From a virus (lineage: Duplodnaviria > Heunggongvirae > Uroviricota > Caudoviricetes), in IMG/VR virus record IMGVR_UViG_2675903266_000003: a DNA stretch of 29,723 nt. The stretch is one strand, 5' to 3'. The position numbers were made by a program. Of the stretch, positions 1 to 3,000 are shown piece by piece. Each line of letters opens with the position of its first letter. Positions within the stretch are counted from its first letter, which is position 1.

Positions 1-3000
1 CCTCAAAAACACCATCATACACTAAATCAGTAAGTTGGCAGCATCACCAGCCTTCTTGAGGCTACCACCTGTTTTCAGGTGTCATTCAGACGTGATTTGC
101 CCCAGATTGGGAAAGCACGCTTTTTTCTCAGCTATCGTCCTCTTATTTTGCCGTTACATTTCTTTTTGCATTCTAATGATTAATTTACAATAATAATATC
201 GGTAATTATTGAGTAATAATAAATTAATTATTGCAAATGTAATTTAATTCCATCTTCGCGTTATATTCCAATCTTTAATCTCCGCATGGAACAAGTTGCA
301 TGCGTGACTATATTAAGACGACTTATAACCACCAAAACATTTGCTTTGCAAGCAAAAACAGTGACCATTGACTCTAAGAAAATTCCGATCTATTGTTAGG
401 GTCATCAAAGTTACTTAACAGTATTCCGAAATGAAAATACAAAGCAAGCTAATTGTCTTATTAAACATTATTATTGCATTTATATTATTTGAGCTTTTAG
501 CTCAAAAATTTGGTTTGAGTACATTATTTTAAAGCAAGATAAACAATATCGGGCACTCTAGTTTTTATAATTAACAATTAAACGTCCATAAAATGTTATT
601 TACTTTTCTTCGCTATTGTCATATCTTAATATAGTGGCTTACGCCACTCTACTTTCATCACATTTTGTACGTTTATGTACTCGCCATGAAGCTCTTTCAT
701 GGCGATTTTTTATTCTTAATCCAAGAACATACTCCCTACCTATAGCAAAATCACTTTTTTAACAAAAGAATAACGTATTTAGGTAATCATTACGAATTTA
801 CCCTATAGGTGCTACTGGCCATTCAATATCCGGTGCAGTTGATGTATCAACACGGTTCAGCAACACCCGATACTTTTTCCAAGCTTCCAGCAACAAGGTT
901 TCTTTCTCCGTTGCGATCTCCAGATCCACAGCATCCTGAAGCGGCGCTATATGCTCACTGGCTACCTGCATCAGGCTGTTTTTTGTTTCTTCCGCCTCCC
1001 GGATCCGGAACAGTTTTTCTGCTTCCGTATCCTTCACCCAGGCTGTGCCGTTCCACTTCTGAAACTCCCCTTCCGGGGATAACCAGGTGACATTTTCCGG
1101 TAATGAGCCGAGTTCAGAAATAAATAACGCGTCGCCGGAAGCCACGTCATAAACCGTTTTACCCCGATGATCTTCAACGAGATGCCACGATGACTCATCA
1201 CTGTTGAAAACAGCCACGAAACCAGCCGGAATATCTGGCGGTGCAATATCGGTACTGTTTGCAGGCAGACCTGTATGAGGCGGAATATATGCGTCACCTT
1301 CACCAATAAATTCATTAGTTCCGGCCAGCAGGTTATAAATTTTTATGGTCCGTGCTTGTTCACTCATTCTGAATGCCATTATGCGAGCCTCACAATATAG
1401 TTAAATGCGATGTTTTTGACGGTGTTTTCCGCGTTACCAGCAGCGTTAACGGTGATGGTGTGTCCATGTGAACCAATCGCAACAGAGTGCGTATGAGCAC
1501 CAATACCGACAGTATGCGCGTGTGCACCCGCAGATGCTGCTGTGCCGGACAGTGAGTGTGTATGGTTTCCTTCTGAAGATGATTTACCTACCCATTGGGA
1601 GGTGCCACTGGTTAATGAGCCACTGATACCAACCTGATTAGTCCCGCTAACTTGAGTACTCCCTGCCGGAAACATTCCAGTAGGTTGACTCCCGCTATTC
1701 GTTCTGGGCCCAGTCTGACTATGTTGGTGGGCCCCAGCTGAACTTGTAGAGCCGCTCAGACTGTGCGTATGCGCCCCGGTGTTATTCGTGGATTTAGTGC
1801 CGTAATCAAACGACGATGTGGTTTTCGTCCCCAAATCCGTACTGGATGCGCTGGCGCTGTGGGTGTGCGATTTAATGCCATCCTGTTCCTGAGACAATAC
1901 GGCACGACCACTGGCGGGCTTGCCCTTAATCGTCCAGCCACGCATATCAGGGATCACGCCTGACGGATAAGCGGCTGCAAGTTTCGGGTAAGCAGATTTG
2001 TCAAAAGTCTGCCCCTGCATCAGGGCATAACCAGACGGAACGGTATCTGATGGCCACGGGATTGGTGCACCGACTGGATAAAACTCTGCAGGAGGATGAG
2101 CCGAGGTGTAAAGCTGCGCCCACGGCGACCAGTTTGCGTCGGTCGTATCCCGTCGTGAACGAATAAATGCCGGAGCATGAGCACCGCTTGTACCACTCCA
2201 GCCGATGAGTAACTCACCTTCGCCAACGGCTGTCATCCCTTTCAGGTGAATGATATTTCCATACGCTGTTGGATATCCGTTGTTATACACCTCGTATAAC
2301 TCAAGACCTGCTGCCCCCTGCGTATTGTCTGTCAGCGCGGCTACCCGACCTTTTGAAGCCAGATTAACTGATGATACTGCTGTTCCACCTGACGGTAGCG
2401 CCCCGATCTCTGATGCCGTTGGCTTATTTCTGGAGTTATAGTCCCTTCGCCAGCCAGGTGAATAATCTGTTCCGTGATTAATATAGGTAAACTGGGCGTT
2501 GGTTGTTCCGCCACCGCTGGATGTGGTCGGAGTGGTAATGCGGATCGTCATCGCTGACTTTATCCCCATTACTTCAATGACAGCTCCGGCGAGATGAATA
2601 TTACCGCAGCCAGTATCAGTAATGATTTTATTATTGCCATAAGACCAGGAACCCTTGCACATCCAGTATGGATGGTTAAATGCTCCCTGAGAATCCAGCC
2701 ACTCGATAAACTGTGCAGTCGTCCAGTTTCCTGTTGTTGTGCTTACTGACCCACCGAAGGCACGGCAGGCACCAATATTTTTCGTAAAGGTGTCTTTGCC
2801 AGGGATATCCGCACCGTTCTGATCTTTCTGCAGACGTTTCTCAGCATTGTCATTGGCTGCTTTTACTGCCTTTGGCGTTGCCGCCAGCGTTTCAGACGTG
2901 CTGTTGGTCGCGCTGCTTAGCTGGATTATCCCTTTCTGTGCTGTCGTTGCATCCTGTGCGGTGTATTTCCCGTTAGCCAGGTCATACGCGGCCTTAACGG

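Follow-up and report, generated by a model that had tools for sequence, protein, structure and literature searches.

The DNA analyzed here is a 29,723-nucleotide (nt) stretch from a tailed phage of the class Caudoviricetes (IMG/VR record IMGVR_UViG_2675903266_000003), referred to below, at its full length, as the window. The subject of the analysis lies at its left end, where AT-rich DNA at 49..797 separates an end of the insertion sequence IS1 from the tail fiber assembly gene tfa. A sequence-only reading of the locus had described this interval as AT rich and poor in open reading frames (ORFs), and both descriptions hold: G+C content is 25%–39% across 1..800, compared to 45%–62% in tfa and the side tail fiber gene stf, and the longest overlapping ORFs encode 52 amino acids (aa; 35..193) and 48 aa (616..762). 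Every feature named in that reading was located again, at most 1 nt from where it had been placed. As judged from copies in other genomes, the interval is a mosaic of three parts, 49..133, 134..219, and 220..797, of which the last holds a small plus-strand gene predicted to encode a membrane peptide related to YncL of Escherichia coli. The features of this part are as follows.

220..797, plus strand: 578-bp tfa-linked module, a moron by the marks given below, holding the small gene; found downstream of tfa in three prophage contexts
368..396, plus strand: sigma-70-type promoter, TTGACT-17-TATTGT, matching 9 of 12 consensus positions
431..532, plus strand: ORF for a predicted 33-aa YncL-like single-helix membrane peptide, MKIQSKLIVLLNIIIAFILFELLAQKFGLSTLF, from ATG to TAA with the stop codon included
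533..630, plus strand: variable part of the 3' untranslated region (UTR), less conserved between alleles
631..711, plus strand: conserved structured 3' domain
633..648, plus strand: hairpin 1, within the 3' domain
647..660, plus strand: invariant linker CUCUACUUUCAUCA, within the 3' domain
667..680, plus strand: hairpin 2, within the 3' domain
681..711, plus strand: terminator stem-loop (681..705) and U-tract (706..711), within the 3' domain

The layout proposed from the sequence, in which a promoter and a terminator enclose a hydrophobic 33-aa ORF, is present in the window. The intrinsic terminator comprises an 11-pair stem with five G–C pairs at 681..705 and the run TTTTTT at 706..711, and it is convergent with tfa, which occupies 798..1379 on the minus strand. 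The promoter had been called near-consensus; a site does exist at 368..396, but with 9 of 12 matches it is a decent promoter rather than a near-consensus one. The remark that the ORF has no good ribosome-binding site also proved correct, as GGAG, GAGG, and AGGA are all absent from the 25 nt upstream of position 431.

In 280 complete E. coli genomes, the entire 749-bp stretch is present with at least 99% identity, unannotated in every case; three cultured lambdoid phages, mEp332, PhiR70_1, and ev099, carry it as well. The module at 220..797 is found in 829 of 5426 complete E. coli genomes (about one in seven, ~15%) and is annotated in none; there are at most four copies per genome and no copies on plasmids. 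It also occurs in 49 IMG/VR contigs, and two scans of representative genomes of 185,579 species returned no match. Three prophage contexts can be distinguished: a prophage of the bio/attB-lambda type (99% identity), a Qin-like prophage at ydfJ (~96%), and a prophage remnant adjoining the sit operon (76%–80%; locus L007). In prophages at the bio/ybhB lambda site and in the phages, the gene order is int–xis, IS remnants, a minus-strand gene for an AraC-family regulator, about 1.5 kb of gene-free DNA, and tfa, and the IS1 of the window interrupts this gene-free region. Homology with the Qin-type and sit-type copies begins only at ~220. To the left of the module, both of these carry a ~100-nt 3' fragment of a different tfa allele (L006 ~4900..5000; L007 4892..4991) in the same orientation as tfa, so that the module is bracketed by tfa and a tfa fragment. 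Because tfa sequence stands on both sides, the module travels together with the tfa cassette, and the arrangement suggests an intragenic recombination event in which an older tfa gave way to tfa plus the module.

The sequence-only reading had allowed that the stretch might be a decayed fragment of a larger gene. For 220..797 this does not apply, since DNA searches returned only copies of the same intergenic module; the comparison was made at the DNA level, without a protein-level six-frame search, and all frames are broken into pieces of fewer than 53 aa. It does apply in a sense to 49..133, which appears to be an old prophage-end relic.

Lambdoid morons are autonomous promoter–gene–terminator units, such as lambda bor and lom and HK97 gp15, and are said to have been described by Juhala and Hendrix. 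The module resembles them in its anatomy. At the sequence level, a promoter and a terminator of its own enclose the gene, and both are kept in the diverged allele; its base composition is foreign (G+C 25%–32%, compared to 45%–62% in neighboring genes); its presence among related phages is patchy, extending to three prophage types, three cultured phages, and the 829 E. coli genomes, and lambda lacks it downstream of tfa. It is inserted at the end of the tail fiber region, with the small gene oriented against the late operon. Based on these sequence properties, 220..797 is best read as a moron, an accessory unit with its own control signals within a phage genome, situated where the lambdoid late/tail fiber region ends. 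It differs from typical morons in that its cargo is far smaller and was missed by every annotation pipeline. Literature searches on prophage small RNAs (sRNAs) and on morons near tail fiber assembly genes returned nothing on this locus, and nothing was found in support of the claim that type I toxin-like genes are often carried next to prophage tail fiber genes.

The informative comparison is that between the window and the sit-type allele. Identity between them amounts to 61% at 331..361, 80% across the promoter block (362..402), 82% across the ORF (431..532), and 65% at 706..760. In L007, the promoter is kept as TTGACT-17-TATCGT (5150..5178) and is the sole promoter-like match in the module, where 4.2 ± 2.0 would be expected; the plus-strand terminator is kept as well, with two terminator-like sites against 0.1 expected. 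The ORF retains its start, stop, and length and contains no indels, compared to five indel sites in the flanks; a 5-nt deletion lies directly 3' of the stop codon. The 18 nucleotide differences within the ORF are distributed 7/1/10 over codon positions 1/2/3, a pattern unique to this frame, and result in seven synonymous codons and five mostly conservative replacements (V9I, I15F, F17L, E21K, and S30Y). In 20,000 simulations that drew substitutions from the spectrum seen in the flanks, the combination of an unbroken ORF and seven or more synonymous codons had P = 0.006. The reading frame is unbroken in 79 of 81 copies examined, and the other two were included precisely as frameshift variants. 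Four peptide variants occur in phage, viral-contig, and metagenome data, comprising three main alleles and one I18V singleton, and a search for further diverged copies with family-level degenerate patterns in IMG/VR and metagenomes gave only these same variants.

A relationship of the peptide to YncL (b4598 in E. coli) was detected by several approaches. NCBIfam NF000537 (YncL, “stress response membrane protein”) was the sole family match among 18,950, with E = 1.3e-5 (25.0 bits) and 3.7e-5 (23.5 bits) for two alleles and 28 of 30 profile positions covered, and none of eight composition-preserving shuffled peptides matched it. In a BLASTP comparison with K-12 YncL (MNVSSRTVVLINFFAAVGLFTLISMRFGWFI), residues 1–28 align from Met1 without a gap, with 11 of 28 positions identical (39%) and 18 of 28 positive (64%), and the composition-adjusted E value is 2e-7. 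Shuffled sequences score 20.3 ± 4.1 against 60 for the actual alignment, a value that none of 20,000 shuffles reached. In addition, the frameshift variant P0007 carries a precomputed match to Pfam PF28073, a family that is also recorded for YncL proteins in the same protein collection. Taken together, the BLASTP alignment, the shuffles, and the PF28073 match indicate homology beyond a shared hydrophobic composition. Searches of Pfam, PHROGs, PADLOC, and PDB with the peptide gave no match; the copy of Pfam used was one without PF28073, and K-12 YncL is likewise unmatched there. A tblastn search of phages matched nothing, identical copies included, presumably through its low-complexity filter. 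A concatenated query returned only proteins of 43–82 aa, which are read-through or frameshift variants of YncL and of the peptide, with one N-terminally extended form. A HMMER search against 1.84 billion representatives yielded only the peptide itself and a frameshift variant, an exact look-up in a protein collection found two unnamed members, and the peptide sequence was not found in any paper. By these comparisons, the peptide is a divergent YncL homolog, and not an equivalog.

The phage peptide and YncL are both small (33 and 31 aa) and form a single predicted hydrophobic helix, with a mean hydropathy of 2.87 over residues 7–24 of the phage peptide compared to 2.16 for YncL, and K2 and K6 precede the helix as a basic N-terminal flank. 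Conserved positions are S5, a basic residue 6, V9-L10, N12, A16, L19-F20, L22, and a basic residue followed by F-G at 26–28; they thus include polar ones (S5, basic 6, N12, and basic-F-G at 26–28). Both genes would be expressed as small monocistronic transcripts. The differences are these: K-12 yncL (1517099..1517194) lies between patD and ortT, whereas the phage gene lies downstream of tfa on a prophage or phage; DNA similarity is lacking both inside the ORF, where nucleotide identity is 51%, and outside it; the Shine–Dalgarno sequence of K-12 yncL (AAGGTGG) has no counterpart in the phage gene; the long, conserved, structured 3' UTR of the phage gene is unrelated to the yncL 3' UTR; and the phage peptide is longer by two residues at its C terminus (LSTLF compared to WFI).

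The 31-aa YncL has been verified as an inner-membrane protein, and both growth in minimal medium and heat shock induce it (PMC12542507). When overproduced, it depolarizes the membrane to a sublethal extent, lowers viability, triggers the phage-shock response, reduces protein synthesis, condenses the nucleoid, and renders cells hypersensitive to pore-forming peptides (PMC12542507). YncL is cleaved in vivo by the intramembrane protease RseP (PMC10470546). The Salmonella ortholog (STM14_1932), whose expression requires sigma-S, was first listed as the sRNA STnc1110 (PMC5437024). Two sRNAs have been reported as partners of the yncL mRNA, namely RprA and KilS, the latter derived from the 3' UTR of kilR in the Rac prophage (PMC8175672; bioRxiv 10.1101/2025.09.11.675593). 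As a separate observation, the degenerate-pattern scan also returned one chromosomal yncL next to an IS1, on an IMG/VR “viral” contig (L063 8490..8585); this copy (F13V) has K-12-like upstream sequence and lies directly beside IS1 and phage-like genes, a case of yncL at a mobile-element boundary.

From the position of the promoter, transcription would start at about 403/404, which would make the 5' UTR ~27 nt long. In both phage alleles, a C directly precedes the -10 hexamer (C-TATTGT and C-TATCGT), and the upstream region of K-12 yncL carries CTATACA (L062 ~12225..12235, minus strand); a C at position -13 is typical of sigma-S-dependent promoters, and in the phage gene it would be the only hint of induction by stress or sigma-S. 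The centroid fold leaves the start region, 403..443, unpaired. A hok-like fold-back was considered and rejected, since the minimum-energy pairing of 419..437 with 604..618 loses three pairs in L007, none of which is compensated. The inverted repeats that connect the start codon with the linker are short (9–13 nt) and AU rich.

Based on these data, the best reading of the locus is a small plus-strand transcription unit for a small membrane peptide. The sequence-only reading had left the choice between an sRNA and a membrane peptide; joint retention of the signals, the coding pattern, and the YncL homology favor the peptide, and the coding signature speaks against an sRNA alone. We assign a probability of about 0.6 to the more specific proposal that 220..797 is a moron encoding a YncL-like peptide that may depolarize the membrane. 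The anatomy of the unit, its conservation, its coding signature, and the YncL homology carry this proposal, and the transcription start, translation, topology, depolarizing activity, and benefit to the phage would follow from it in this way. In a lysogen, the promoter at 368..396 would be active and give rise to a plus-strand mRNA of ~310 nt starting at ~403, with a short, unstructured leader devoid of a Shine–Dalgarno sequence. Translation of 431..532 would initiate from the unpaired start region, and the transcript would end at the terminator at 681..711, which would at the same time shield tfa from antisense transcription. By analogy with YncL, the peptide would insert as a single helix with its N terminus inside and K2 and K6 in the cytoplasm. 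Accumulated peptide would partly dissipate the membrane potential and thereby slow host metabolism, from which the prophage might gain control over host physiology or the exclusion of other phages. Expression would be kept low by the lack of a Shine–Dalgarno sequence, by AT-rich DNA that is a likely target of silencing, and, during lytic growth, by convergent read-through from the late operon, which would run antisense across the small gene.

Several observations weigh against this proposal. It is built from sequence, and its functional part is carried over from experiments in which YncL was overproduced. Neither the length of the ORF nor the promoter is, taken singly, beyond chance in DNA this rich in AT, and the number of promoter-like sites in 1..1500 (6 found, compared to 4.7 ± 2.1 in shuffled sequences) is at chance level. 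No Shine–Dalgarno purine run was found upstream of the ORF at 431..532. The NF000537 scores fall under the curated cut-off of 35 bits (K-12 YncL itself scores 68.6 bits), and neither flanking DNA similarity nor synteny with the patD/ortT context of yncL is present. The 3' domain, at 94.7% identity, is better conserved than the ORF at 82%. Frameshifted copies (P0003 and P0007) occur, if rarely, and the coding signature derives essentially from one diverged lineage, with only three main alleles. What is beyond chance is the joint retention of the three signals in diverged copies, together with the YncL homology of the peptide.

The 3' region requires separate consideration. Unlike the single promoter or the 33-codon ORF, 597..712 is beyond chance by its fold alone, with a free energy of -27.2 kcal/mol compared to -12.3 ± 2.7 kcal/mol for shuffled sequences (z = -5.6). 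Between the window and L007, the spacer at 533..596 is 66% identical with eight gap columns, and the U-rich, unstructured segment at 597..630 is 79% identical; the segment at 631..705, in contrast, is 94.7% identical between the alleles, compared to 61%–82% elsewhere (P ~2e-5 under uniform divergence). This higher conservation could reflect a primary function at the RNA level or a recombination tract. Among 11 distinct alleles, 98% of the cells in the structural alignment are paired, and four one-sided changes keep a wobble pair; all stem transitions retain a wobble pair on the plus strand. The U-tract is U6 in the window, reads CUUUCUUAUU in the L007 and L035 alleles, and is U5 in some others; it is thus short of the uninterrupted, conserved run of at least 6–7 nt by which an Hfq-type or 3'-UTR-derived sRNA would be recognized.

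Among the sRNA and small-protein collections whose search had been suggested along with the sequence-only reading, NCBIfam returned the YncL match, and Rfam returned no significant family over the stretch: with both strands of 1..1500 searched at E ≤10 and the whole window at gathering thresholds, only IS009, inside tfa, was significant. Rfam matches to MicC (E = 1.4), Aar, and Esr41 were at chance level and were discarded. The MicC covariance model aligns weakly over its full length to 592..719 on the plus strand (22.8 bits, compared to a gathering score of 90), with GUUAU...UAUUGUCA common to both near the 5' end. On inspection by eye, this 5' part does not reproduce the ompC-pairing seed of MicC. 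The linker CUCUACUUUCAUCA is complementary to start regions of the AUGAAAGU type. Both the MicC-like alignment and the linker complementarity are probably due to chance. The 3' domain may be a simple terminator or stability element, or a recent recombination tract, and could alternatively be the source of a 3'-UTR-derived sRNA.

Three other explanations of the locus have to be weighed against a YncL-like moron. The product could be an RNA, with the 3' domain (~597..711) acting as an Hfq-type or 3'-UTR-derived sRNA through the linker and the ORF being either incidental or part of a dual-function transcript. The exceptional conservation of 631..705, its strong fold, the plus-strand wobble pairs, and an sRNA-like layout of a single-stranded 5' part, hairpins, and terminator, along with the weak likeness to MicC, all point in this direction, and there is a precedent in the Salmonella yncL transcript first catalogued as an sRNA (PMC5437024). 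However, the alleles contain not a single compensatory base change, Rfam recognizes no significant family, and the putative promoter that would drive a separate RNA, TTATAA-18-TAAAAT ahead of 597 (identified by eye), is not conserved in L007. The interrupted U-tract of the L007 and L035 alleles weakens the Hfq-binding 3' end, and the 3' domain is never found apart from the ORF (827 compared to 829 genomes). The conservation itself could stem from a recent recombination tract, as L035 and L060 are visibly mosaic, and the coding signature speaks against an incidental ORF. An RNA product is therefore considered quite unlikely. Somewhat better placed, and still unlikely, is the view that the locus is a silent relic, in which flanking DNA with a decayed, once-captured yncL-like gene hitchhikes with the tfa cassette and is not meaningfully expressed. 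The missing Shine–Dalgarno sequence, the AT-rich and probably silenced DNA, the failure of the PGAP pipeline ever to annotate the gene, and the existence of frameshift variants would fit such a relic, as would the neighboring 49..219, which is demonstrably fossil DNA. The narrow diversity, confined to E. coli with 0 of 185,579 species representatives, is consistent with a recent spread rather than with long-term selection. A decaying gene would not be expected, however, to remain intact in 79 of 81 copies whose alleles differ by 20% and carry indels everywhere but in the ORF, nor to have so very few of its differences at second codon positions (1 of 18). Moreover, promoter and terminator have been kept along with the ORF, and the module persists in cultured, viable phages, in which genome size is constrained.

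The third alternative is a type I toxin–antitoxin system, in which translation of the 33-aa toxin would be blocked by an antisense RNA arising from a minus-strand site at 622..593 or from the tail of tfa/late read-through. The peptide and its setting do recall type I toxins (Hok/Gef, Ldr, TisB, IbsC, ShoB, ZorO, and DinQ): the peptide is small, hydrophobic, and predicted to reside in the inner membrane, its gene has a poor or absent ribosome-binding site, and it lies in an AT-rich intergenic region of a mobile element. Its class fits a membrane-active toxin, and its homolog YncL depolarizes the membrane and cuts viability, as type I toxins do (PMC12542507). A promoter-like sequence at 622..593, ATGACA-18-TAACAT, faces the ORF on the minus strand and has TAATAT as its -10 element in L007, and chromosomal yncL mRNA is itself an sRNA target (KilS and RprA; PMC8175672; bioRxiv 10.1101/2025.09.11.675593). 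Yet the minus-strand site fails the scan criteria in L007, no minus-strand terminator was found in 1..1500, and minus-strand hairpins at ~340..360 fold no better than shuffled sequences (z = 0.2 to -1.2). Checks of terminators, hairpins, promoters, complementarity, and Rfam, including its antitoxin RNAs, identified no antitoxin RNA at the phage locus, and YncL has no known antitoxin. Nor does the peptide show a sequence relationship to the toxin families (Hok, Ldr, Ibs, TisB, ShoB, ZorO, DinQ, and others) in Pfam, NCBIfam, PHROGs, or PADLOC. A long, structured leader is likewise missing, the predicted 5' UTR being short, and the L007 allele does not preserve the hok-type contact of the start region with the 3' UTR. 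The label “type I toxin-like” is thus fair as far as “toxin-like” goes, given the effects of YncL overproduction (PMC12542507), but a type I system, for which neither an antitoxin RNA nor a toxin family match was found, is decidedly unlikely.

More generally, a YncL-like moron invites comparison with YohP and other stress-induced small membrane proteins, which are likewise shorter than 50 aa and consist of one helix without a catalytic domain. YohP and YncL both cause sublethal depolarization and nucleoid condensation when produced early (PMC12542507). Sequence similarity between YohP and the phage peptide was not detected, and the genes of this class differ in belonging to the chromosomal core and in being under sigma-S or stress control. 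In an extended form of the proposal, the peptide would be a lysogen-expressed membrane effector that tunes the membrane potential for superinfection exclusion or a defense resembling abortive infection, and the highly conserved 3' UTR (631..711), set free as an sRNA that acts in trans, would give the 310-nt transcript a second function. We regard this extension as very improbable; if true, it would provide the first physiological role for the YncL family.

What recent work shows of YncL, one of the small membrane proteins of E. coli, is limited to the effects of its production, namely membrane depolarization and nucleoid condensation. A diverged copy with its own promoter and terminator in viable lambdoid phages, invisible to all annotation pipelines used, suggests that phages recruited the YncL family. 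What is new, on this sequence evidence, is an unannotated phage-borne member; the family itself is known, and the locus is not a new system. It offers a genetically easy system for asking what YncL-type peptides do, as mEp332, for which MG1655 is the listed host, grows on K-12, and a concrete case of a conserved small gene inside “gene-free” AT-rich prophage DNA. The practical effect on the understanding of the phage will be modest unless a phenotype is found.

The features that adjoin the module on both sides are as follows.

1..48, strand not assigned: IS1 terminal end; its junction (...GGCAGCATCACC meeting AGCCTTCTTGAG) is the same as that beside an annotated IS1A transposase in the relative L002
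49..133, plus strand: 85-bp conserved “prophage-end” element, which recurs alone at prophage ends
134..219, strand not assigned: AT-rich spacer of the bio-site prophage type, in which no conserved feature was found
798..1379, minus strand: tfa, called tail fiber assembly protein in relatives
1379..4468, minus strand: stf, side tail fiber gene

The identity of this junction with that of the annotated IS1A in a close relative substantiates the IS1 end abutting the stretch at position 48. As to the possible loss of cargo next to IS1, the closest relative with IS1 at the same junction, L002, lacks only 546 bp of noncoding fossil DNA between the region upstream of the AraC-family regulator gene and the equivalent of position 49 (L002 5027..6000 compared to L001 5245..5996), as in an IS1-adjacent deletion, and the regulator gene, the next one beyond the deletion, is intact. 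The window begins inside IS1, and the state of the deletion is that read in L002 rather than in the window itself.

The 85-bp element at 49..133 contains two small hairpins (49..63 and 66..81) and an imperfect hairpin at 88..120 that is followed by T6 at 121..126 on the plus strand. Several hundred further E. coli genomes have this element by itself, located where a lambdoid prophage ends and host DNA begins, as in an nleG-carrying prophage of O157:H7 beside uspF and in a prophage at the serU/zinT locus. Copies lie at L055 2501..2586 and L056 2501..2585. Some records label a small ORF neighboring the element “capsid protein.” In IS1-free relatives (L001) and in the three phages, the element lies ~100 nt from a 340-bp host-like piece that matches the yodB–serU interval of the K-12 chromosome at 97% identity and includes the 3' 62 nt of tRNA-Ser(CGA). 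This piece is found just left of the IS1 junction in a bio-site prophage and in the free phages PhiR70_1, ev099, and mEp332 (L001 5551..5890, L003 2067..2406, L004 3551..3890, and L005 2051..2388). It looks like the scar of an ancestor that once resided at serU and excised imprecisely. The element is probably the relic of an older attP arm with a tI/sib-like terminator for integrase-side transcripts, a reading adopted because its position and strand match integrase-side transcripts crossing the attachment site; a comparison of the 85 bp with the sib/tI region of lambda revealed zero sequence similarity.

Four further ORFs were examined as possible genes and rejected. The start codon of 35..193 lies inside IS1; 286..399, annotated as hypothetical in PhiR70_1, has ACG in place of ATG in the Qin-type and L007 alleles; 616..762 is interrupted by a stop at codon 3 in the L007 allele; and 261..368, on the minus strand, is disrupted by indels between alleles. 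Two observations concern the window beyond the module. The sole above-threshold Rfam match of the whole window, IS009 (838..1036, minus strand, 218 bits), lies wholly inside the tfa coding sequence, so that what the predicted “sRNA” family describes appears to be a conserved part of tail fiber assembly genes. Finally, the minus-strand region between stf and lom (4561..6238) contains an extra, truncated Ail/Lom ORF of 160 aa and a 374-aa ORF with the tail-tip and C-terminal receptor-binding domains of J. The full lom lies at 6927..7526, and the two ORFs together represent a partial second J'–lom' copy that is absent from the relatives L001 and L002.

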